Of a DNA stretch of 64,000 nucleotides, positions 9,000 through 57,562 are shown one piece after another (within the stretch, counting starts at the first letter, position 1; each line of letters opens with the position of its first letter). Below the pieces are notes generated by a model that saw only the letters and a program-made list of their open reading frames with translations, made no database searches and was not told where the DNA came from. The stretch is from an uncultured bacterium (GTDB lineage Bacteria; Methylomirabilota; Methylomirabilia; Rokubacteriales; DASRDR01). The position numbers and the translations under genes were made by a program. The DNA lies in assembly GCA_964416315.1 (NCBI GenBank), contig CAYQDR010000003.1, positions 46,031 to 110,030 on the forward strand, written 5' to 3'.

Positions 9000-9142
9000 G
9001 GCCAGGCTGCCCACCGAGGATCGAGCCCCTCTCGGCTCACCCCGGGCCGTGATTTGGGTGTCGGAGCCGCGAGCTCGACCGCGATCGCCCGCAATTCCCA
9101 GAGTTGCGGAAGACGACTGAGAAACGGGCCCGGAGCCCGGGC

Positions 9143-10483
9143 CTACTCCCACATCGCGTCGAAGATGGAGCCGGCGAGCGTCGGGAAGACGTAGTGCATC
9201 GCGGCGAGATCCTGGCGCGTGAGCCCCCCGCGCATGGCGGCCGAAGCGACGTGGATCAGGTCCTCGGCCCCCGGACCGAGAATGTGGGCCCCAAGGAGCC
9301 GCCCGGTCGACGCCTCGGCCACCACCTTGACGAGGCCCTCGGTTTCCTCCCGCACCGCCGCCGCGGTGCTGTCCTCGAAGGGGACCCGGCTTACTGAGAC
9401 CTCGAGCCCCTGCCGCCGCGCCTCGGCCTCCGTGAGCCCGACCTGCCCGATCGCCGGGATCGTGAAGACGGCCGTGGGGAACCACCGGAGGTCCACCGCG
9501 CGCTGGTTGCCTCGGAGCGCGTTCTCCGCGACGAGGCGGCCCTCGTACCAGGCGACGGGGGTGTGCTGGTGCTGGCCCGTGACGTCGCCCGCGGCGTACA
9601 CATGCGCGGCCGTGGGTGACTGGCGGAACTCGTTGACCTTCACCCCGCCCCGCTCCACCGCCACGCCGGCGGCCTCGAGGCCGAGGCCGGCGGTGTTCGG
9701 GGGGCGGCCGGTCGCCACCAGGACGACGTCGCCCGGGAACCGCTCGGCGCGCCCCCCGACCTCCGCCTCGACCGTGCGGTCGGCGCCGATCCGCGTGACG
9801 CGCGCCCCCGTCCGGACCTCGAGCCCGGCGTCCCGGGCGATCGCGAGCAGCGCCTCGCGGATCTCGTCGTCCAGGGCCGGCAGGACGTGCGGCCCCGACT
9901 GGAGCACGGTGACGCGCGTCCCGGCCCGCGCAAAGGCGAAGCCGAGCTCCATCCCGATGTAGCCGCCGCCGACCACCACCATCCGCGCCGGCAGGGTGGC
10001 GTGGTCGAGCAACTCGTCGCTCGTCATGGCGTGCTCGATCCCGGGGATCGGCGGCCGGGCCGGGGAGGAGCCGGTCGCGATGATGACGCGCTCGGCCGTG
10101 ACCCGGCGCCCGGCGACGTCGAGCTCGCGCGGCCCGCGGAACGTCGCGCGGCCGCGGAGAACCGCGATCCCCTGCCGCTCGAAGCCCGTGTCCTTCCCGG
10201 CCGACCACTCCGCCACCAGGCGGTTCTTCCGCGCGATGATGGCACCCCAATCGAGCCCCAGCCCCGCCGTCCCCGTCACGCCCAGCCCGGCCGCGCGGCG
10301 CGCCCGCCAGGCCAGCTCCACGGTGCTGACCAGCACCTTTTTCGGGATTCAGCCGCGCCCGAGGCAGGTTCCCGCGAAGCCGTCCGCCTCCACGAGCGCC
10401 GTCCGGGCGCCGAGCCCGACGGCCGTCCGGGCGGCGAAGCCCCCCGCCGTTCCCGCGCCGATCACCAGGAGATCGTAGTCCAC
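9143..10483 (-). CDS. MerA-like flavoprotein disulfide reductase; in-frame TGA (10351-10349) at the second active-site Cys, candidate selenoprotein
   Basis: MDYDLLVIGAGTAGG FAD-binding fold. Active site GTCLGRG-[TGA]-IPKK where the family has CxxxxC. Blocks IIATGSSPARPPIPGI, LVATGRPPNT and VYAAGD resemble MerA-core blocks as recalled. Strong SD GGAGAGGAGG 5 nt before GTG 10483. The ORF track shows only the post-TGA part, 9143-10336. Confidence 0.7.
10322..10337 (-). ncRNA. SECIS-like stem-loop GGUGCU-GGUC-AGCACC, 11 nt downstream of the UGA at 10351
   Basis: Perfect 6-bp stem with GGUC loop. Spacing and loop match the E. coli fdhF SECIS apical hairpin as I recall it. Confidence 0.55.
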
Positions 10484-10523
10484 ACGGACCTCCTCTCCGC
10501 GAGTGACCCCGACTGCCGTCCTC

Positions 10524-10706
10524 TCAGCCTCGTCCCTCCACGGGCACGAGGGCCCAGGCGCCGAACTCGTAGGTGACGCGCTGCCGCACTCCGTGGCACT
10601 CGATCAGGTCACCGGGCCGCACGTCGTCCGGCAGATGCACGACGTGCTCCCCCACCGCACAGCTCGCCGTCTTGACCGGGCTGACCGTCCACACGCCGTC
10701 CGTCAC
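10524..10706 (-). CDS. hypothetical 60-aa protein between the redoxin and reductase genes
   Basis: ORF MTDGVWTVSPVKTASCAVGEHVVHLPDDVRPGDLIECHGV... No family recognised. Could be a small beta-barrel protein or non-coding. Confidence 0.3.
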   Translation of the reverse strand: MTDGVWTVSPVKTASCAVGEHVVHLPDDVRPGDLIECHGVRQRVTYEFGAWALVPVEGRG

Positions 10707-10824
10707 GCTCGCCCGGAGCGTGAGCCCGGCTCAGTTGGGTCAGTCGAAGACCCCGCCGTTGGCGATCCCGTCCGGGATCGCGATCTGCTGGCCTCAGCCC
10801 GGGCACCAGGCGGTCGGCATCCGC

Positions 10825-11061
10825 CTACGCGAGCCCGAGCAGCCGCTCGAGCCTGCCCCGGTCGAAGCCCACCACGGCCTCGCCGTCGATGACGGTGACC
10901 GGCGTGGCGCGGTAACCGAGCGCCTGGAGCTCCGCCAGGGCGGCTGGGTCCTGACGGATGTTCCGGTCGGTGAACACGACGCCTTTCTGAGAAAGAAACT
11001 CTTTCTCCGCCTGGCAGGCCCCTCAGCCAGGCTGCGTGTAGACGACGACCGACTTGGCCAT
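10825..11061 (-). CDS. NrdH/glutaredoxin-like redoxin with UxxC motif (TGA at 11025-11023), candidate selenoprotein
   Basis: MAKSVVVYTQPG-[TGA]-GACQAEKEFL..TPVTVIDGE..VGF is the NrdH/Grx fold with the first Cys of CxxC replaced by TGA. SD GGAGGG before ATG 11061. Hairpin GAGAAAG-AGUUU-CUUUCUC at 10989-11007, 15 nt after the UGA. Confidence 0.65.
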
Positions 11062-11227
11062 CACGCCCTCCGTTCGCTCACGCGGCGTTCCCCGCCAGGA
11101 GGCCGCCGAAGATCCGGCGGCCGAGCTTGAACGCTTCGCCCACCGTGGCGCCGGCCCCGGGCACGTCGGGGTGCGCGTCGTGCCAGGCCCGCAGGTGCTC
11201 TTCCGACCGGAAGAAGTTGAGCGTCGT

Positions 11228-11758
11228 TCAGAGCGAGGTGAAAACCTTCCGGTCGATCTCCCCCCGCTTCCCGACCCAGACCATGACCCCGTCGGCACCC
11301 GGACCCGGTCCCTCCGCGTCGGCCTCGAACTCGAGGGGCCCCCCGCAGTGGTGGCAGCGCGAGCGGATCTCCATGCACTGGCCCAGCATCGCCGCCACTC
11401 CGAGCGCGTCGATGGCGCAGCACGCGTACCGGCGCCGGCCGCCCGGGAGCACCACCGCGAACGCCGTCGGCACGGCGGCGAAGGGGTAGGCGAGCTCCAC
11501 CCGCCCCTCGCGGACAAGGATCAGGTCCCGCTCGTCCAGGCCCGCGACCTCCTCCAGCAGGCCATCGCGGGGTCGATCCGGAAACCAGGCCACGATCTCA
11601 TCGATCGGGATCGCTCCCTCCCGCTCGACAAACCGCCGGAGGATGCGCTGGAAGACCGCGTCCAGGCGCTCGGCCCGGCGGGTGGCCCAGCGCGCCTCGA
11701 GCTCCGGATCTACCAGCTCCTCGGCGGTCTTGATCTCCAGCGCCACCCGAGGCCTCAT
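11228..11758 (-). CDS. MerB-family (organomercurial lyase-like) paralogue
   Basis: YACCAIDALG and SRCHHCGG align with the MerB WCAxDTL and CxHxHFF catalytic regions. ATG 11758 directly abuts the merE stop. Confidence 0.6.
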   Translation of the reverse strand: MRPRVALEIKTAEELVDPELEARWATRRAERLDAVFQRILRRFVEREGAIPIDEIVAWFPDRPRDGLLEEVAGLDERDLILVREGRVELAYPFAAVPTAFAVVLPGGRRRYACCAIDALGVAAMLGQCMEIRSRCHHCGGPLEFEADAEGPGPGADGVMVWVGKRGEIDRKVFTSL

Positions 11759-12075
11759 GCGGCTGGACGGGGGGAGCCGCCCACCCCATTGGATTCGGCG
11801 ACCGGGGGCCGCGATTCGCCCGCCGTCCGGGGCGTCCCGCGGTCCGGCTCCCCCCAGGCCCGCAACCCGCGGAGCAGCGAGCCGGCGAAGACGACCGTCA
11901 TGACCGCGAAGGCCGCCGCCGCGTGCTCCCGGAGGACGGCGGCCAGGGCCGTGCCGCCCAACAGGGCGAGCGCCAGCGGAAGGTGGCACGGGCACGTGAC
12001 GGCGGCCACCCCGAGCAGGAGGTACGCCTTCCGTGGCCGCCCCGCCTCCGGTACGCCCCGGGTCATCGCCCGCAT
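11755..12075 (-). CDS. merE: MerE-like mercury transporter
   Basis: LLGVAAVTCPCHLPLALALLGGTALAAV matches the MerE LTCPCHLP transmembrane signature as recalled. Alternative ATG at 12066. Confidence 0.65.
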   Translation of the reverse strand: MRAMTRGVPEAGRPRKAYLLLGVAAVTCPCHLPLALALLGGTALAAVLREHAAAAFAVMTVVFAGSLLRGLRAWGEPDRGTPRTAGESRPPVAESNGVGGSPRPAA

Positions 12076-12082
12076 CGCACGC

Positions 12083-12724
12083 TCACGAACCCGGCAGCCG
12101 CCGCGCTTTGAAGCCCGCCGCTGCGATCGCCTCGACCATGCGCTCGATGGTAACCGAGGCGGGGTCGTACGTCACCCACGCCTTCGCCTGCTCGAAGCTC
12201 ACCTCGGCGTGCTGGATGCCCGGGAGCCCTGCCAGGGCTCGCTCGACCACGGTGGGTCAGGACCCTCAGGTCATCCCGTCCACCTGCAGGATCACGCGCG
12301 CCGCGACGACCGCGCCATGGCCGCCGGACGGACTCGGCCCGGTCCCCGCCTCGTGCTCCATCGCCGCGATTCCGCCCCACGACGCGATGAGCCGTGCCGT
12401 TCGGTCAGGGAACGCCGTCAGGACGACGGCAGCGGCGAGCACAACCGTCGAGATCCCCAGGAGCACTCCGTTGACACGGCCGCCGGCCATGGCGCATCCG
12501 AGCCGCTGGCAGCGCCGCCGTTCCCGCAGGTGGAGGTACCAGCCGAGGCCCGTCCCGAGGACCCCCGCGGGGATGAAGACGTACGTGTACCGCATCGTCA
12601 CCGCCATGAATGCCCCACTCCCCAGGCCGAGCACGACGACCGCGAGGGGGAAGAGGCAGCAGAGCGAGGCAACCGACGCGGACGCCATCGCCACGATGCT
12701 CGACCTCACGTCTGCGAGCTTCAC
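12083..12724 (-). CDS. MerT-like membrane protein fused to a MerP-like HMA domain; metal-binding motif reads GMT-[TGA]-GS-[TGA]
   Basis: TM1 with vicinal CC (ASLCCLFPLAVVVLGLG), loop Cys pair CQRLGC, third TM, then an HMA fold ILQVDGMT-U-GS-U-PTVVERALAGLPGIQHAEVSF..AWVTYDP..IERMVEAIAAAGF. TGA codons at 12268-12266 and 12259-12257. Hairpin GAGCCC-UGGCA-GGGCUC at 12224-12240. Start GTG 12724 overlaps the anti-sigma stop. Confidence 0.6.
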
Positions 12725-13368
12725 GGCCGCACCTGGTCCACCGTCGCGAGGCGTGCGAGCCAGAGGCCGGCGAAGGCCCAGAGCACCGCCCCGAGCCCCA
12801 GCCCCGAGACGAAGGCCACCTGGAGGGTGGGCGCGAACTCGCGGCACTGGATGATCACGTAGGGCGCCAGAATCCCGAGGAACAGCACGCCCGCTTCGAC
12901 CGCCCGGACCGCGGTCCCGTGCCGCAACAGCCACACGCCCAGCGCGACCGGTATCCCGTACGCAGCCCCGGCGACGAGATACGGCAGCGCATCGACGTCG
13001 GACCCCTGGAGCGCCTGCCGACACCAGGCGACCAGGAGGGGATACGGCACGAGCAGCGACAGCACGAGCGAAGCCGCGATCCCGATCAAGGCAGCCTGGG
13101 CGGCTGCGGCCCACCCGCGAAGCGCCAGGACGGACTCCCGGAGGGCGCGGCGGCGTACCTCGCGCAGCACCCGGGTCCTCACCGCGGCCGGGGGCGGCGC
13201 CGCCCCAGGCCAGCGGTCCAGGAGCGCCCAGGTCCCCCGGAGCGCCTCCAGCTCGGCGCGGCAATCCGCGCACGTCTCGAGATGCGACGCCACGTCCCCG
13301 GCCGGGGAGTCCTCCGCACCCCCAAGGCCGACGTCAAGCAGCCGGTCCCTGACCCCATCGCACTCCAT
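12721..13368 (-). CDS. membrane-bound ZAS-type (zinc-binding) anti-sigma factor
   Basis: C3...H29-x3-C33-x2-C36 ZAS motif (MECDG...SHLETCADC) followed by several transmembrane helices. Confidence 0.65.
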   Translation of the reverse strand: MECDGVRDRLLDVGLGGAEDSPAGDVASHLETCADCRAELEALRGTWALLDRWPGAAPPPAAVRTRVLREVRRRALRESVLALRGWAAAAQAALIGIAASLVLSLLVPYPLLVAWCRQALQGSDVDALPYLVAGAAYGIPVALGVWLLRHGTAVRAVEAGVLFLGILAPYVIIQCREFAPTLQVAFVSGLGLGAVLWAFAGLWLARLATVDQVRP

Positions 13369-13411
13369 GGCACGCCCCTCTGCCCTGGGAAACGAAAGGC
13401 GACGCGCTCCG

Positions 13412-13963
13412 TTACAGCTCGCCGAGCAGATCGCGGAGCCGGCGAAGGGCCCGGTGGAGGGTGACCCGCACCGCGCCCGGGGACGCCCCGATGATCTCCG
13501 CGACCTCCTCGGCGCTCAATCCGCCGAACCGGCAGAGGAGGACGACCTCGCGGTGGGAGGGGGGAAGCTCCAGCATCGCCGCCTGGAATCGCTCGCTGAG
13601 CTCGCCCGCCTCGGCCCGCTCCAGCGGCGTCGCGCTCGGATCGGCCAGCGTCTCGGCGAGCTCGCCGCCCTCCAGCACTCGCGCTCCGCTCCGTCGCCGG
13701 AACTCGTCCACGACCAGGTTTCGGGCGATGGTGAAGAGCCAGGTCCTGAACGCGGCGCTGGGACGCCAGCCCTCGCGGTGTGCGAACACCCGGAGAAACG
13801 TCTCCTGGAGGAGGTCCTCCGCCTTCCGCCGCTCGCCGAGGGACCGGAGCAGGAAGGTGAACACCCTTCGATGGTGCCGGTCGTAGAGCGCCTCGAAGGC
13901 TGTCGGGCTCCCCGCCCGCACCTCGTCCATGAGCACTTCGTCCGAGCGAGTCTCGCGCGGCAT
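13412..13963 (-). CDS. ECF-type RNA polymerase sigma-70 factor
   Basis: Sigma-70 region 2 and region 4 (FLLRSLGERRKAEDLLQETFLRVF ... LSAEEVAEIIGASPGAVRVTLHRALRRL). Start ATG at M17 of the listed ORF. Confidence 0.8.
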   Translation of the reverse strand: MPRETRSDEVLMDEVRAGSPTAFEALYDRHHRRVFTFLLRSLGERRKAEDLLQETFLRVFAHREGWRPSAAFRTWLFTIARNLVVDEFRRRSGARVLEGGELAETLADPSATPLERAEAGELSERFQAAMLELPPSHREVVLLCRFGGLSAEEVAEIIGASPGAVRVTLHRALRRLRDLLGEL

Positions 13964-14102
13964 GGCGAATCGGGGCGAAACGTCTTGAGTATACGCAGCG
14001 GCCAACCCCACGTCCGCGGGCGGAGATCGTCGCCGAGAATCCCTGGGCGCCCCGGACCCCTCAGAAGGCGTGAAGGGCAGACAGGACGAAGGAGGTCACG
14101 TC

Positions 14103-14765
14103 ATGAGCAACGTCCGCGCAGCCGAAGCCGTGTGGAAGCTGACCAGCGACGGGAGCGTGCTGGACTACGGACCGGATCTCTCGCACCTGCTCGTCCGCGT
14201 CATGCGGGCGCTCGCCCGGGGCCGTCCGGTCGCTGCCCGGGAAGCGGATCGCATCCGCGCCGCCCTCGGCATCACTCGAGACGAGGCGGAGCGCTTCCTG
14301 AGCGGGGTAGCCGAGCGGAACGCCGACGGTGACGTCGTCGGGATCCTCGGGCTGACGCTGACCGAGACGCGTCACCGCTTCGCCGTCAACGGCGCGAGGA
14401 TGTCCACGTGGTGCGCCGAGGACACGTTGTTCCTGCCCGCCATACTGAACGAGACGGCCACAGTCGAGTCCACGTCCCCGGTCAGCAGCCAAACGATCCG
14501 GCTGACCGTGAGCCCGGACGGAGTGGAGGAGGTCAGCCCGGCCAGCGCGGTCGTCTCGCTGGTCGTCGTCGAGCCGGATCGGGCGGACATGAGCTCGGTC
14601 GAGGCGATCTGGACCACGTTCTGCCACCACATCCACTACTTCGCATCGACGGAGGAAGCCGAGCAGTGGGCCGGCGGCAGGGACGACATCGAAATCGTCC
14701 CGGTCCACGAGGCGTTCGAGCTCGGCCGGCGGGTCTCGTCGAGGTTTCTCGCCTACGCGGAGTGA
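14103..14765 (+). CDS. merB: organomercurial lyase MerB
   Basis: TWCAEDTLFLPAIL (Cys/Asp), FCHHIHYFAS (Cys) and VPVHEAFELG match canonical MerB. SD AGGAGG 7 nt before ATG 14103. Divergent from the sigma factor gene. Confidence 0.8.
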   Translation: MSNVRAAEAVWKLTSDGSVLDYGPDLSHLLVRVMRALARGRPVAAREADRIRAALGITRDEAERFLSGVAERNADGDVVGILGLTLTETRHRFAVNGARMSTWCAEDTLFLPAILNETATVESTSPVSSQTIRLTVSPDGVEEVSPASAVVSLVVVEPDRADMSSVEAIWTTFCHHIHYFASTEEAEQWAGGRDDIEIVPVHEAFELGRRVSSRFLAYAE

Positions 14766-14780
14766 GGGGCGGGAGCCAGT

Positions 14781-15443
14781 CTACCGGCCGAGCGACCGGG
14801 CGAGTCCTTCCAGGTCGGCGACCTCGAGGTCGGGGACGAGGCCGAGCTCCTCGAGCGGCGCGCGGGCTCGGTTCACCCAGACGACGGGGAAGCCATAGGC
14901 CTTGGCCCCCGCCACATCCCAGCAGTTCGAGGAGACGAAGCCCAGCGACTCCTTCGGCAGCCCAAGCCGCGCCGGGCCGAGCGCGTAGACCGCCGGGGCG
15001 GGCTTGAAGATCCGCGCGGCGTCCACGCTGATCACCGCGGGGAGGTGGCGGCCCAGCCCCGTGTGCTCGACGGCGGCCTCCAGCATCCGCGGTGCCCCGT
15101 TGGAGAGGATCGCGCACGGCAGGTCCCCGAGCCGGGCGAGGACGCCGCGCACCTCGGGGAAGGGCTCGAGCCGGAGATACGCCTCCATGAGGCGCCGGCG
15201 CTGGGCCGGGGTCAACTCGAGCCCGAGGCGCCGGCAGGCGAAGACGAGGGCGGCCTCGGTCACCGCCCAGAAGTCCTCGTACCGTCCCATGAGGCTGCGG
15301 AGCCACGTGTACTCGAGCTGCTTCGCCCGCCAGAGGTTCGAGAGCGCTTGGGGGTCGCTCGTCACCGCGCCGCAGGCCTCGATGACCGAGTGGACGTCGA
15401 AGAGCGTCCCGTACGCGTCGAAGAGCAACCCCTGGACCTGCAT
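14781..15443 (-). CDS. HAD-superfamily type II haloacid dehalogenase
   Basis: FDAYGTLFDV nucleophile motif and HAD core. Confidence 0.75.
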   Translation of the reverse strand: MQVQGLLFDAYGTLFDVHSVIEACGAVTSDPQALSNLWRAKQLEYTWLRSLMGRYEDFWAVTEAALVFACRRLGLELTPAQRRRLMEAYLRLEPFPEVRGVLARLGDLPCAILSNGAPRMLEAAVEHTGLGRHLPAVISVDAARIFKPAPAVYALGPARLGLPKESLGFVSSNCWDVAGAKAYGFPVVWVNRARAPLEELGLVPDLEVADLEGLARSLGR

Positions 15444-15508
15444 CGTCCGCCTCCTCGGGGCGATCGCGCCTTGCGGGCGGATCGCCGAGTCCGTACACTG
15501 AGGGCGCC

Positions 15509-15874
15509 ATGCCGCGGACCGTGACCGCCGTGAGCGTGCGGCACCGACTCCTCGCGCTGCTCCTGGCCCCCGCGCTCCTCGCCGCCTGCGCGGCGCTCCT
15601 GCCGCTCCGCGAGCCGCCTCCCGGCGCCTCGGGCGACCCGACCGCCGGCGCGACCACGCGCGCCGAGGCGATCGCGCGGCTCGGACCGCCCATGGAAGTG
15701 CGCGCCTCGGACCTCGGAGAAGTGCTGGTGTACCGGCGCCTGAGCGTCGTGGACGCGAACCCGAACCGCTACTACGGCCAGGACCGCGGCGCCCGCCGCG
15801 ACCGCTACGAGCGGATCCTCCTCTACCTCGACCGCGATGGCCGGATCGTCAGGTGGGCGACGGAACCGGAGTGA
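15509..15874 (+). CDS. hypothetical lipoprotein
   Basis: Signal peptide with lipobox LLAAC. Confidence 0.5.
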   Translation: MPRTVTAVSVRHRLLALLLAPALLAACAALLPLREPPPGASGDPTAGATTRAEAIARLGPPMEVRASDLGEVLVYRRLSVVDANPNRYYGQDRGARRDRYERILLYLDRDGRIVRWATEPE

Positions 15875-15877
15875 ACC

Positions 15878-15904
15878 TCGGAGGGGGGCTCCGCCCCCCT
15901 CCGA
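15878..15904. terminator. GC-rich hairpin tcggagggggg-ctccg-cccccctccga between convergent genes (family A core)
   Basis: 10-bp perfect stem directly after the lipoprotein stop and before the dacC-like stop. No U-tract, as usual in high-GC genomes. Confidence 0.5.
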
Positions 15905-15908
15905 CGAT

Positions 15909-16850
15909 CTAGCGGGAGCTGGTCCGGGTCGTCGGCACGCGGCCCCGCCACCGGTGCGTCGCGCCGCGCGGCTCCGGCACCGGCTCGCCGAAGCCGAACC
16001 GGAGGAGCCGCCGCGCGTCGAGGAAGGACAGCCCCCGGGTCTCGGCCCCGAGGATGATCAACAGCAGCCGGTGCCCGGCCTTCCCGGCCGCCACCGCGAG
16101 GTTGTAGCCGGCCTCGAGGCTGTAGCCGGTCTTCAGCGCCGTCACGCCCCCCGGGTCCCGGAAGAGCGGCACGCGGCGCCGGTAGACCCGCCCGCGCCAC
16201 GCAAACTCGTCCTCGCCGAGGAGTTCGCGGCTGTCCGGGAAGTCGGTCAGGAGCCGCTCCGCGAGCTCGGCCATATCGCGGGCCGTGGAGCGCTGCGCCG
16301 GGTCCGGCAGTCCGTGCGGGTTCGCGAAGACGCTCTGGCCGAGGCCCATGCGCCGGGCCGTGGCGTTCATGCGGACGACGAATGCCTCCTCGCTCCCCGC
16401 GACGTGCTCGGCCACCGCGGTGGCCGCATCGTTCGCCGACGCGATCGCCACGCCCGCCAGGAGGACGTCGAACGGGACGACCCGGCCGGTCACGAGCCCC
16501 ATGCGGAAGGGTGGCGTGTACGCCGCGTTCGGGCTCACGATCACCGGGTCCCCGAGGCGCACCTTGCCCGCGCGGAGATCCTCGTGGGCGAGGTAGAGCG
16601 TCATCAGCTTGACGAGGCTGGCCGGAGCGCGATCGCTCTCCGCGTTCTTCGCGTAGAGGACGCGCCCCGTGTCGAGGTCCACGAGCAGTCCGGCCTCGGC
16701 CGTGACCGCAGGGGGCGGCGGCTCGGCGCCGATCGCCGGGGAGACGGCGAGGAGGATCAGGCCCAGGCCCGCAGCCAGGACGCGGCGGACAGGCTCAGCC
16801 CGCGGGACCGGCAATGCGCAGCTCGGCAGGAACGGGGAGGTCTCGGACAC
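15909..16850 (-). CDS. serine-type D-Ala-D-Ala carboxypeptidase (PBP5/6 family)
   Basis: SLVKLMT (SxxK), SANDAA (SxN) and KTG motifs. Signal peptide. The true start may be internal, around 16790. Confidence 0.75.
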   Translation of the reverse strand: MSETSPFLPSCALPVPRAEPVRRVLAAGLGLILLAVSPAIGAEPPPPAVTAEAGLLVDLDTGRVLYAKNAESDRAPASLVKLMTLYLAHEDLRAGKVRLGDPVIVSPNAAYTPPFRMGLVTGRVVPFDVLLAGVAIASANDAATAVAEHVAGSEEAFVVRMNATARRMGLGQSVFANPHGLPDPAQRSTARDMAELAERLLTDFPDSRELLGEDEFAWRGRVYRRRVPLFRDPGGVTALKTGYSLEAGYNLAVAAGKAGHRLLLIILGAETRGLSFLDARRLLRFGFGEPVPEPRGATHRWRGRVPTTRTSSR

Positions 16851-32945: not shown

Positions 32946-33004
32946 GGCCCGCTCCTTCCCGCGACTCGACGCGGCCGCCTGCGTCGCGGGCTCAGTATAC
33001 AACC

Positions 33005-44509: not shown

Positions 44510-46231
44510 TCAAAGCAGCGGCGGCACGTACGCCTGGCGCTTGACGTCGAGGAGGCCGCGGGCTGTGAGGCGGAGCGCCGGGATGGCGGTGAAGGTCAGC
44601 GTCTGGAGGGTCAGCAAGGGGCGCGGGAGCCGACAGCCGAGGGCGCGCGCCGCCTCCTCGATCGCCTCCAGTCCGCGCGCGACCTCGCGGAGGGGCAGAT
44701 CCGAGGCCACGCCGCCGAGCGGGAGCGACAGGTCCGCGCGCACGGCGCCGGTGCCATCCACGACCGCGAGGCCGCCTCGCAGCTCCACCACTCGGCGCAG
44801 GGCCGCGCTCAACGCCTCGGGGGAGGCGCCGAGGACGACGAGGTCCGCCGTGTCGAAGGAGACCGTCGAGGCGAACGCGCCCTCGCGGAGCCCGAAGCCC
44901 CGGACGATCCCCAGTGCGCGGCGCCCCGCGACGCGGCGATCCAGCGCCGCCGCGACGAGGCAGTCCCGCCCGGGATCGGCGACGACGGCACCGTCCCGCA
45001 CGGGGAGGGTCACCGCGTCCTCCGCGGTCAGGATGTCGCCCGCGATCCGGATCACCCGCACCCGCGCCGTCGGCCCCGGGGCCGTGAGCCGCAGCGTCGC
45101 CGGCTCGAGCGGCCCGGCGCACAGGCCGGCGTAAACGCCCGCCGGCAGGACGGCCGGCTCGAGGGGCGCCAGGCACTGCCCCTCGCGGGCGACGACGCGG
45201 CCCCGCGCGACGACGACCTCCGGACGCACCGTCCGGAGGCCCGGCAGCAACACGAAGTCCGCGAAGCGCCCGGGCGCGATCCCCCCGAGGTCGCCGTCGA
45301 GCCGGTAGTGCTCGGCGACGTTCAGGCTCGCCATCCGGTACGCCGTGACGGGCGGGATGCCGAACTCGATCGCCTTCTGGACGATCCCGTCCATGTAGCC
45401 GTGGGCAAGGAGGTCGGCCGGCCAGACGGCGTCCGAGGCGAGTGCCGCGCGCCGGAAGTCCACGCCGTCGTGGCGGACCCCCGCAACGGCCGCGAGGTCG
45501 CGGCGCACCGAGCCCTCGCGCACGAACACGAACATCCCGAGCCGGAGGCGCTCGAGCGCCTCGGCGGCCGTGATCGGCTCGTGGCAGGAGCCGACGCCAG
45601 CCCCCACGTACGCGGCGAGCTTCGCGCCGCGGGCCCCCGCCGAGTGGCCCTCCACGGTCTTGCCGAGCACTCGGGCCCGCTCGATGAGCCCGCCGAGCCG
45701 TTCGGGCTCCGGGAGGAGGCGGTGCCAGTAGACCTCGCCGAGGCCCAGCACGGCCGGGTCGTCGAGGAGCGCCCGCATTTCGACCTCCCCGATGACCGGA
45801 GCCCCCGTGCCGTCGTCCGTCGAGAGGAACGAGATGACCGGCGCCGTCGCGAAGGCGTGGATCGGCTGCGCGCGGAGACAGTCGAGGAACCAGCGGGCGC
45901 CCGCCGACCCGAGCGCGGAGGTGAGCTGCCCCATCTCGGTGACCAGGGCCGTGAGCCCGCGCGGGATCGCCTCGCGCAGCAGCTCGGGGAGGCTCACCAG
46001 CGTGTCCAGGTGGGTGTGGCCGTCGATGAAGCCGGGCACGAGGACGTGCCCCGCGGCGTCGAGCCGCGCCGTCGCCGGCCCGGCGAGCCCCCCGAGGTCG
46101 GGTCCCGTGGCGGCCACCCGCTCGCCCGCGACCGCGACGTCCCAGCGGATGAGCTCGCCCGTGTAGACGTTGACGACCGTCGCGCCCGTGACGAGCAGAT
46201 CGGCGGGCGCCTCGCCCAGGGCGACCCGCAT
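44510..46231 (-). CDS. ade: adenine deaminase
   Basis: FIDGHTHLD metal-binding motif and amidohydrolase fold. Full-length match to the adenine deaminase family. ATG 46231. Confidence 0.8.
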   Translation of the reverse strand: MRVALGEAPADLLVTGATVVNVYTGELIRWDVAVAGERVAATGPDLGGLAGPATARLDAAGHVLVPGFIDGHTHLDTLVSLPELLREAIPRGLTALVTEMGQLTSALGSAGARWFLDCLRAQPIHAFATAPVISFLSTDDGTGAPVIGEVEMRALLDDPAVLGLGEVYWHRLLPEPERLGGLIERARVLGKTVEGHSAGARGAKLAAYVGAGVGSCHEPITAAEALERLRLGMFVFVREGSVRRDLAAVAGVRHDGVDFRRAALASDAVWPADLLAHGYMDGIVQKAIEFGIPPVTAYRMASLNVAEHYRLDGDLGGIAPGRFADFVLLPGLRTVRPEVVVARGRVVAREGQCLAPLEPAVLPAGVYAGLCAGPLEPATLRLTAPGPTARVRVIRIAGDILTAEDAVTLPVRDGAVVADPGRDCLVAAALDRRVAGRRALGIVRGFGLREGAFASTVSFDTADLVVLGASPEALSAALRRVVELRGGLAVVDGTGAVRADLSLPLGGVASDLPLREVARGLEAIEEAARALGCRLPRPLLTLQTLTFTAIPALRLTARGLLDVKRQAYVPPLL

Positions 46232-57525: not shown

Positions 57526-57562
57526 GACGCTCCTAGTCTAGCCCCACCACCCGGGTGCTAGA

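Follow-up and report, generated by a model that had tools for sequence, protein, structure and literature searches.

How are mercury-resistance (mer) genes controlled when their operon is headed by a sigma factor gene and an anti-sigma gene? To our knowledge, all characterized mercury-responsive gene control depends on one-component DNA-binding sensors, either MerR or the ArsR-type MerR. The question is raised by a 64,000-nucleotide stretch of DNA from an uncultured bacterium of the Rokubacteriales (contig CAYQDR010000003.1, forward-strand positions 46,031 to 110,030), referred to here, in its whole length, as the window. The G+C content of the window is approximately 72%, and the sequences nearest to it belong to Candidatus Rokubacteria (Methylomirabilota) genomes assembled from metagenomes. 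A single tightly packed transcription unit of approximately 4.9 kb runs on the minus strand from 13963 to 9143 and carries, in this order, the genes for a sigma factor of the extracytoplasmic function (ECF) type, an anti-sigma factor, a MerT-HMA fusion, a MerE-like protein, a MerB-like lyase, a glutaredoxin-like protein, a zinc-ribbon protein, and a MerA-like reductase. The original prediction held that these mer genes are controlled by the sigma factor and a membrane anti-sigma factor with a C..HxxxCxxC motif instead of MerR, and that this motif senses mercury through its zinc-bound thiols. Both regulatory genes were indeed found at the head of the operon, the motif included, and the proposed 139 bp divergent region was read from the sequence between the ATG of the sigma gene (13963) and that of a merB gene (14103).

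The strongest evidence on this question came from related genomes. A total of 45 loci was gathered from genome, metagenome, and assembly collections, and loci with at least 700 nucleotides (nt) downstream of the anti-sigma gene were regarded as informative. Mer-type genes were defined as those for MerT, HMA/MerP, MerC, MerE, MerB-like, glutaredoxin-like, zinc-ribbon, or Met-rich proteins. A search for the same sigma/anti-sigma pair beside mer genes elsewhere had been suggested with the original prediction, and the pair stood beside them in 31 of the 31 informative related loci; in each of these, mer-type genes were encoded downstream of the anti-sigma gene, in the same orientation and at most 3.5 kb away. 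The sigma gene lay directly upstream of the anti-sigma gene wherever upstream sequence existed. All 64 close homologues of the anti-sigma protein came from Rokubacteria or Methylomirabilota metagenomes, and the named members of its membrane-domain family belonged to NC10/Methylomirabilales, Desulfobacterales, and Calditrichia. Distant members with approximately 25-30% identity retained the mer linkage. The gene order was (ArsR)-sigma-anti-sigma-HMA-MerB-like-glutaredoxin-zinc-ribbon-MerT in an NC10 locus (P0082), sigma-anti-sigma-MerT with overlapping codons and then HMA in a Desulfobacterales locus (P0092), MerC-sigma-anti-sigma-MerF-HMA...MerE-MerT in P0102, and sigma-(cyclase)-anti-sigma-MerT-HMA-MerF in P0075. 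Because the distant loci keep the mer context, a set of Hg(II)-type transporters is the constant partner of the anti-sigma gene. The comparison thus gives strong evidence that the sigma/anti-sigma pair is functionally tied to the mer genes and did not come to lie beside them by chance, and we consider it likely that its function lies in the handling of soft metals, most likely mercury.

The layout of the operon is consistent with such a tie. The anti-sigma gene starts 43 nt downstream of the sigma gene, its stop codon overlaps the start of the MerT-HMA gene (GTGA), and between the sigma gene and the MerA-like gene every junction is either an overlap or a very short gap. The two regulatory genes appear to be cotranscribed, and are probably translationally coupled, with the mercury transporter and detoxification genes. 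The chromosomal surroundings (S11 peptidase, HU, DUF502, and HAD genes) are conserved in the related loci L003 and L032, indicating that the locus is neither an assembly chimera nor a mobile insertion.

The sigma gene (13412-13963, minus strand) encodes a 183-amino-acid (aa) protein of the ECF (group IV) family that consists of regions 2 and 4 only. It matched Pfam Sigma70_r2 (residues 26-92, E-value 1.4e-18), Sigma70_r4_2 (residues 124-176, 4.8e-16), and Sigma70_ECF, as well as TIGR02937 (8e-34; 116.6 bits against a cutoff of 42.9). Since its N-terminus, MPRETRSDEVLM, aligns with the orthologues, the start was placed at the ATG at 13963 and not at the GTG at 14011. The nearest solved relatives in a PDB search were SigE and SigL of Mycobacterium tuberculosis and SigW of Bacillus subtilis, and CnrH was a more distant relative (E-value 9e-13).

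The anti-sigma gene (12721-13368, minus strand) encodes 215 aa, comprising an N-terminal zinc-motif domain (residues 1 to approximately 85) and a four-helix membrane domain (approximately 86-215). The motif reads C3, then H29-LET-C33-AD-C36, with 25 residues between C3 and H29; the C3 codon lies at 13360-13362 and the H29-x3-C33-x2-C36 codons at 13261-13284. With this motif and an adjoining ECF sigma gene, the protein falls into class I of the zinc-binding anti-sigma (ZAS) factors and would be expected to bind both zinc and the sigma factor. The family profile matched the anti-sigma domains of RsiW (E-value 1e-4), ChrR, RslA, and DdvA. Weak matches below cutoff were seen to zf-HC2 for residues 1-85 and to an RsrA-type model for the full-length protein (RsrA equivalog, 20.8 bits against a cutoff of 62.5). 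Four membrane helices were indicated by an AlphaFold2 model (mean predicted confidence, pLDDT, 80.6) and by hydrophobicity, and the topology was derived from these two sources together with the positive-inside rule. On this topology, the cytoplasm would hold the C-terminus, the second loop, and the N-terminal linker, which is rich in arginine.

Two cysteines are predicted at the periplasmic ends of membrane helices 1 and 3, respectively: C116 (codon 13021-13023, minus strand), which is Cys in 92 of 98 full-length family members, and C175 (codon 12844-12846, minus strand), which is Cys in 97 of 98. H29, C33, and C36 occur in all 98 members apart from alignment gaps and C3 in 88, giving six candidate ligand residues in all. 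R176 and E177, which adjoin C175, vary in distant members of the same alignment. C116 and C175, which the original prediction did not mention, are conserved as strongly as the zinc ligands, and a thiol site in the membrane would adjoin MerT/MerP-type proteins whose genes are translationally coupled with the anti-sigma gene; the pair is therefore at least as good a sensor candidate as the zinc site. No Pfam family was found for the membrane domain even at E-values up to 10, and hhalign detected no relation between this domain and MerC or MerT. A Foldseek search of the full-length model against the PDB gave no match below an E-value of 1, a result that is uninformative for a small helical membrane protein. 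When the membrane-domain profile was searched against 1.84 billion representative proteins, only 64 clusters were found, nearly all of them with a zinc-motif N-terminus. The domain may represent a new anti-sigma sensor domain.

The absence of MerR was examined in the window and in relatives. Within the window, tblastn searches with MerR of Tn21, a Bacillus MerR, CueR, and ArsR gave nothing better than an E-value of 0.1, leaving aside a Streptomyces ArsR-like MerR query that was only approximate. Hidden Markov models built from the MerR-like and ArsR-like proteins of the relatives' loci reached best E-values of 2.7 and 0.17 across the six frames of the 64 kb. In addition, the intergenic region contained no suitable promoter or dyad of the kind seen in MerR-controlled mer operons, with only short palindromes (GTATAC, CCGCGG) and no long MerR-type operator dyad. 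The predicted replacement of MerR thus stood for the window but not for the family, because MerR- or ArsR-family genes adjoin the sigma gene in several relatives. In L015 (second copy), L022, L023, and L028, genes of the MerR family are found upstream of the sigma gene in divergent orientation; L004 and L024 also have such genes nearby. An ArsR-family gene precedes the sigma gene in the NC10 locus or diverges from it in the Calditrichia locus, and palindromic operator-like sequences are present. We considered these MerR-like neighbors as true Hg sensors and rejected them, as they lack the Cys82/117/126 pattern; the protein of L015 is CueR-like, with Ser at the Cys82 position and a C-x8-C motif.

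Taken together, these observations led us to propose a conserved signaling-plus-detoxification module in which metal-triggered release of the sigma factor feeds back on mer expression, a reading to which we assign a probability of roughly 0.5. Basal transcription of the operon would start from a general-type promoter marked by a TATACT box, and the anti-sigma protein would hold the sigma factor at the membrane. A thiophilic metal, Hg(II) or RHg+, would bind the conserved cysteines of the membrane pair, of the zinc site, or of both, possibly after being handed over by the adjacent MerP, MerT, MerC, or MerF proteins. Binding would inactivate the anti-sigma protein, and the freed sigma factor would raise transcription of its targets, either the mer operon itself or unlinked genes. 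The nature of the signal, the sensing site, and the action of the sigma factor on the operon are all inferred. A more specific version, in which the anti-sigma protein is a membrane-embedded mercury receptor whose periplasmic-face C116 and C175 take Hg(II) from a MerP/MerT/MerC/MerF relay and thereby release the sigma factor, is put forward tentatively and seems to us rather less probable than the general scheme.

A number of findings, given in this and the following two paragraphs, weigh against the proposed module. The family members all come from uncultured organisms. The original prediction also took HxxxCxxC to imply a thiol switch, and this did not hold: the flanks here, SHLETCADCR, resemble EHLETCEKCR of RsiW. 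RsiW, ChrR, and RsuA carry HxxxCxxC yet are insensitive to thiol oxidants, and thiol sensitivity depends on the RsrA-specific flanking residues K33FEHHFEECSPCLEK47 (PMC3177212). With RsiW-like flanks, a low RsrA score, and four membrane helices, the protein does not qualify as an RsrA/RshA-type thiol switch. The SigW regulon of B. subtilis was not induced by Hg(II) and stays repressed (PMC12563154). Since Hg(II) binds thiolates irrespective of redox sensitivity, the lack of thiol-switch features would still leave attack by Hg(II) possible. The predicted sensing of mercury at the zinc thiolates is chemically reasonable but drew no support from the motif alone, and it appears doubtful that the zinc site is the primary sensor.

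Promoter evidence pointed in the same direction. Because the genes within the operon overlap or are separated by very short gaps, a promoter for the 4.9 kb unit could plausibly lie only in the 139 bp divergent stretch that separates the sigma gene from merB (13964-14102), the one gap of promoter size. The ECF-type promoter sought there was not found, as the region contained no GGAAC or AAC-N15-19-CGT-type site. The window-wide count of GGAAC-N15-18-CGT was at chance (10 observed against 8.8 expected). The sigma upstream regions of 22 orthologues, representing 18 non-redundant loci, were aligned. Across the 18, an exhaustive bipartite search with 5-mers and 4-mers found nothing above shuffled controls, and four degenerate ECF patterns showed no enrichment over such controls. 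SigE, SigL, and SigW use clear AAC-type -35 elements. No promoter of the autoregulatory kind, pairing an AAC-type -35 with a CGT-type -10, was seen upstream of the sigma gene; such a promoter is typical of the ECF family though not strictly required, so the assignment of the sigma factor to that family stands. A sigma-70 two-hexamer and terminator scan of 13300-14300 gave zero sites, and an Rfam scan of 9000-14300 gave no family.

What the alignment did reveal was a -10-like box, TGCGTATACT (13988-13997, minus strand), with TATACT at 13993-13988, 24 nt before the sigma ATG. Of the 18 non-redundant loci, 11 have a match to its consensus, CGCGTATACT, at 19-38 nt upstream of the start codon; TAnACT is invariant, and no conserved -35 accompanied the box in the aligned regions. 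TA[TCG]ACT occurs only six times on both strands of the window (128 kb), and four of the six boxes lie 9-48 nt upstream of long open reading frames with high third-position G+C (GC3), compared with 24% of random positions; three of these four precede unrelated genes. In the NC10 locus, a near-identical box, TATACG, has a perfect TTGACA 16 nt away (TTGACA-N16-TATACG), with an inverted repeat, GACAGA-N7-TCTGTC, between the hexamers, ahead of the arsR-sigma-anti-sigma-merB operon. The most economical reading is that TATACT serves as the -10 element in a promoter of the general, housekeeping type, perhaps under the control of a one-component metal sensor. CGTATA, which is identical to the -10 of SigW, was considered as a SigW-like -10 and rejected as the main reading, given the lack of an AAC-type -35 at 15-18 nt in 11 aligned promoters and the position of the box before unrelated genes. 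Recognition of CGTATA by the ECF sigma factor is possible, and the missing AAC-type -35 argues against it. Further TA[TCG]ACT boxes were located at 15494-15499 (plus strand), 32994-33001 (minus strand), and 57535-57540 (minus strand). A textbook extended -10, TGTATACT, was present at 33001-32994, and two of the boxes were only 9 nt before start codons. Such short spacing suggests that this organism has promoters consisting of a -10 alone, and possibly mRNAs without leaders.

The general character of the -10 box and the lack of an ECF promoter are what would be expected if the sigma and anti-sigma genes were passengers, transcribed together with the rest of the operon by the housekeeping sigma factor from the TATACT promoter, either constitutively or under a one-component sensor encoded elsewhere. 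The ECF sigma factor would then relay mercury or thiol damage to an unlinked regulon for thiol homeostasis or envelope repair, and not to the mer genes. The hexamers and inverted repeat of the NC10 locus, the divergent ArsR gene with a palindromic operator in the Calditrichia locus, and the MerR-family genes divergent from the sigma gene in L015, L022, L023, and L028 all fit this explanation. On the other hand, no such regulator gene lies within the 64 kb around the operon, ECF sigma genes are as a rule autoregulated and act on their neighbors (PMC7826278), and the MerR-like neighbors lack the Hg-type cysteine triad, that of L015 being CueR-like. A passenger role also leaves unexplained why the anti-sigma gene always comes directly before Hg transporter genes, and we regard it as a possible but not a probable account of the operon. 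Because ArsR- and MerR-family genes adjoin the sigma gene in relatives, layered control is a serious rival to the proposed module; in such an arrangement, a one-component sensor would act on the housekeeping-type promoter, with the sigma/anti-sigma pair as a second layer or an output.

The remaining alternatives concern the signal, and we consider both improbable. The anti-sigma protein might respond to envelope or thiol-oxidative stress, by RsiW-like proteolysis or RsrA-like oxidation, instead of mercury, and be linked to the operon because the proteins encoded there, rich in Cys and selenocysteine, would be required or at risk when such stress occurs. RsiW is indeed its best match, with nearly identical motif flanks, and metal sensing is not a property of most zinc-motif anti-sigma factors (PMC3177212). 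However, the targets of RsiW-type proteolytic cascades cross the membrane once and have an extracytoplasmic domain, whereas four helices with short loops are predicted here, and the near-universal membrane cysteines, together with the exclusive mer-transporter context across phyla, favor a thiophilic metal as the signal. In principle, the module could sense and handle a soft metal or metalloid other than mercury (Cu(I), Ag(I), Au, or organo-tin, -arsenic, or -selenium compounds), the Mer names being mere family labels. In many relatives, a secreted Met-rich protein typical of Cu(I)/Ag(I) binding is encoded after the anti-sigma gene; L015 and L004 have a CueR-like regulator and P-type ATPases nearby; the reductase of the window lacks the C-terminal cysteine pair of MerA and does not reach the MerA cutoff; MerA is missing altogether from several loci; and L043 carries an ArsP permease. 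Mercury is nevertheless favored by the two MerB-family lyases (one of them near-canonical), the MerT, the MerE, and the MerA-like reductase of the window, and by the constancy of MerT, MerC, MerF, and MerE as neighbors of the pair.

Comparison with known systems places the proposed module closest to, but apart from, several of them. It shares with SigW-RsiW of B. subtilis the adjacent, cotranscribed ECF sigma and anti-sigma genes, a membrane-anchored anti-sigma factor, and a related sigma factor; the N-terminal domain matches that of RsiW (E-value 1e-4), and H-LET-C-xx-C-R is common to both. In contrast, RsiW is a single-pass protein with an extracellular domain that is subject to PrsW/RasP proteolysis, whereas the anti-sigma protein described here has four predicted helices with a pair of conserved cysteines in the membrane part and lacks an extracytoplasmic domain. 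SigW also has an autoregulated promoter, TGAAAC-N16-CGTA, and no such -35 was seen here. SigR-RsrA and SigH-RshA of actinomycetes, on which the mechanism of the original prediction was modeled, share the Cys plus HxxxCxxC zinc site; RsrA, however, is soluble and has specific flanks, whereas the present protein is predicted to be membrane-integral and has RsiW-like flanks. The MerR (Tn21/Tn501) and ArsR-type MerR systems are similar in that regulatory genes head the mer operon, a short divergent control region is present, and cysteine thiolates are the presumed Hg ligands. They differ in that no operator dyad lies between -35 and -10 elements with a 19-20 bp spacer here, and in that the part of the one-component DNA-binding sensor is taken by a sigma/anti-sigma pair as the candidate regulator. 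In CnrYXH of Cupriavidus and CorE of Myxococcus, an ECF sigma factor is likewise tied to a metal-resistance determinant with the metal as signal. CnrYXH has a separate periplasmic Ni/Co sensor, CnrX, and a short anti-sigma factor, CnrY; CorE lacks an anti-sigma factor and senses Cu through a Cys-rich extension that is part of the sigma factor. In the present locus, by comparison, mer genes form the cargo, and a novel multi-pass domain of the anti-sigma protein is the candidate sensor. The polytopic membrane anti-sigma factor CarR of the CarQ-CarR system of Myxococcus has no large extracytoplasmic domain and is inactivated by a chemical signal at the level of the membrane, as is proposed here, although its signal is light and singlet oxygen, unlike the proposed metal. 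We know of no zinc motif or mer context for CarR.

The other genes of the operon were assigned as follows, all on the minus strand. The MerT-HMA (MerP-like) fusion (12083-12724) matched HMA (E-value 3.6e-16), UxxU_metal_bind NF041115 (92.2 bits), and MerTP_fusion (4e-21), and its metal motif reads GMT-TGA-GS-TGA-P. The MerE-like protein (11755-12075) has a CPC motif and matched Pfam MerE (1.2e-10) and NCBIfam MerE (3e-16). With the presence of MerT-HMA and MerE here, and of MerC or MerF in relatives, the locus has the transporters of a mer operon. The MerB-like lyase (11078-11758) matched Pfam MerB (2.3e-27) on read-through of an in-frame TGA (11230-11228); CCAID is present, the TGA sits at the position of the catalytic Cys159 of MerB, and the gene is broken at the same site in L032 and L033. 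The glutaredoxin-like protein (10825-11061) has a TGA-GAC (UxxC) motif, matched Pfam Glutaredoxin (2e-14), and belongs to the Uxx_star family. It is followed by a 98-aa tandem LysW-like zinc ribbon (10524-10820; Zn_ribbon_LysW, 4.5e-6), the frame of which is kept across eight loci. In the MerA-like pyridine-nucleotide (flavoprotein) disulfide oxidoreductase (9143-10483; TIGR02053 MerA, 352.8 bits against a cutoff of 454), the active site C-LGRG-TGA replaces the CxxxxC redox disulfide, and both the C-terminal Cys pair of MerA and an NmerA domain are absent; MerA and lipoamide dehydrogenase models scored about equally, both under cutoff. On the plus strand, the divergent merB (14103-14765) encodes a near-canonical organomercurial lyase (Pfam MerB, 1.1e-30; NCBIfam MerB equivalog, 189.9 bits against a cutoff of 193) that keeps the catalytic C..D and C in WCAED and FCHH (MerB Cys96, Asp99, and Cys159). 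A type II haloacid dehalogenase gene comes next after it.

Eight in-frame TGA codons were found in the operon, all at cysteine positions of metal or redox motifs, in five consecutive genes with the MerE-like gene excepted. They lie on the minus strand at 12268-12266 and 12259-12257 (HMA, GMT-U-GS-U), 11230-11228 (Cys159 of the MerB-like lyase), 11025-11023 (glutaredoxin-like, UGAC), 10796-10794, 10742-10740, and 10733-10731 (zinc ribbon, C-PG-U and U-PN-U), and 10351-10349 (reductase, C-LGRG-U). These codons are conserved in independent genomes, with the genes split at the same places in L032 (92% nucleotide identity). Each TGA is followed after 11-16 nt by a hairpin, two of which have GGUC loops. 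Known selenoprotein families include NF041115 UxxU, MerT-type proteins, and the Uxx-star glutaredoxins (PMC13188914). The TGA codons probably encode selenocysteine (Sec), which would make this a selenocysteine-rich mercury operon. The gene orfX, called as a 60-aa open reading frame, is in reality the 98-aa tandem zinc ribbon, its N-terminal ribbon being hidden by the TGA codons. An internal promoter in the apparent gap between the glutaredoxin-like gene and orfX was rejected, as this gap is coding and contains in-frame TGA codons. Homologues of the zinc-ribbon protein were found in L001, L004, L008, L024, L025, L027, and L031; in L025, the last TGA is TGC (Cys), an exchange of Cys and Sec. No NCBIfam or Pfam selenoprotein family covered this protein, which may represent a new selenoprotein family.

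The gene content around the pair varied among relatives. The divergent merB is present in the 99%-identical strains L033-35, whereas in L032 (92% identical) a PhdYeFM/PIN toxin-antitoxin pair replaces it (L032 1580-2967, corresponding to window 14134-14780); L032 retains the first 30 nt of merB and the entire intergenic region. L033 has an extra MerC gene exactly between the anti-sigma gene and merT (L033 2044-2481, corresponding to window 12718-12734), indicating that the transporter content at this junction is fluid between strains. In many relatives, a small, secreted, extremely Met-rich protein (MPGMMMPMMPMMGNMAQMMQ...) is encoded right after the anti-sigma gene (L006 2230-2500, L008 10660-10960, L010, L011, L016, L017, L030, and L031), followed by a periplasmic HMA protein with the metal motif C-S-G-TGA. 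The two proteins suggest periplasmic binding of Cu(I), Ag(I), or Hg. A promoter-bearing gap after the anti-sigma gene in relatives was considered and rejected, since the gap encodes the Met-rich protein. In L004 (9345-10337) and L005 (8201-9193), the genes for MerE and a canonical merB are separated by an inserted gene, in opposite orientation, for a sigma-54-dependent activator with no obvious sensor domain, hinting that merB may be sigma-54 dependent in these loci. A single genome can hold several paralogous sigma/anti-sigma/mer modules: one 49 kb contig (Ga0137796_10000114; L015 and L020) carries three copies of the anti-sigma gene. L008 has a second, divergent sigma/anti-sigma pair (14845-16245) followed by a MerB-like gene, and in one Methylomirabilota lineage a gene with a guanylate/adenylate-cyclase domain lies between the sigma and anti-sigma genes (L044 and L045, 1564-2325).

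Literature searches for a link between ECF sigma or anti-sigma factors and mer genes returned nothing relevant, mercury is absent from the main text of the ECF re-classification paper, and the homologues appear in databases as "hypothetical protein" or "anti-sigma factor family protein". Our comparisons point to an undescribed mercury-linked signaling module with relatives in three phyla, which combines what may be a new anti-sigma domain with very consistent genomic cargo. If the proposed module is correct, bacteria of at least three phyla would have a second means of sensing mercury or related soft metals, one that operates at the membrane, and the membrane domain would stand as a new type of anti-sigma sensor whose cysteine pair is open to testing. 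If the anti-sigma protein is itself the mercury receptor, this would be the first sigma-factor-based mercury sensor that is neither MerR nor ArsR, and it would control a largely selenoprotein detoxification pathway. The sigma/anti-sigma pair is also a possible orthogonal part for mercury biosensors. Even if the sigma factor were only a passenger, the locus would still show that mer operons can carry a stress-relay output of their own. For the uncultured soil and groundwater bacteria of the Rokubacteria and NC10, the module would provide a handle on selenocysteine-rich detoxification.

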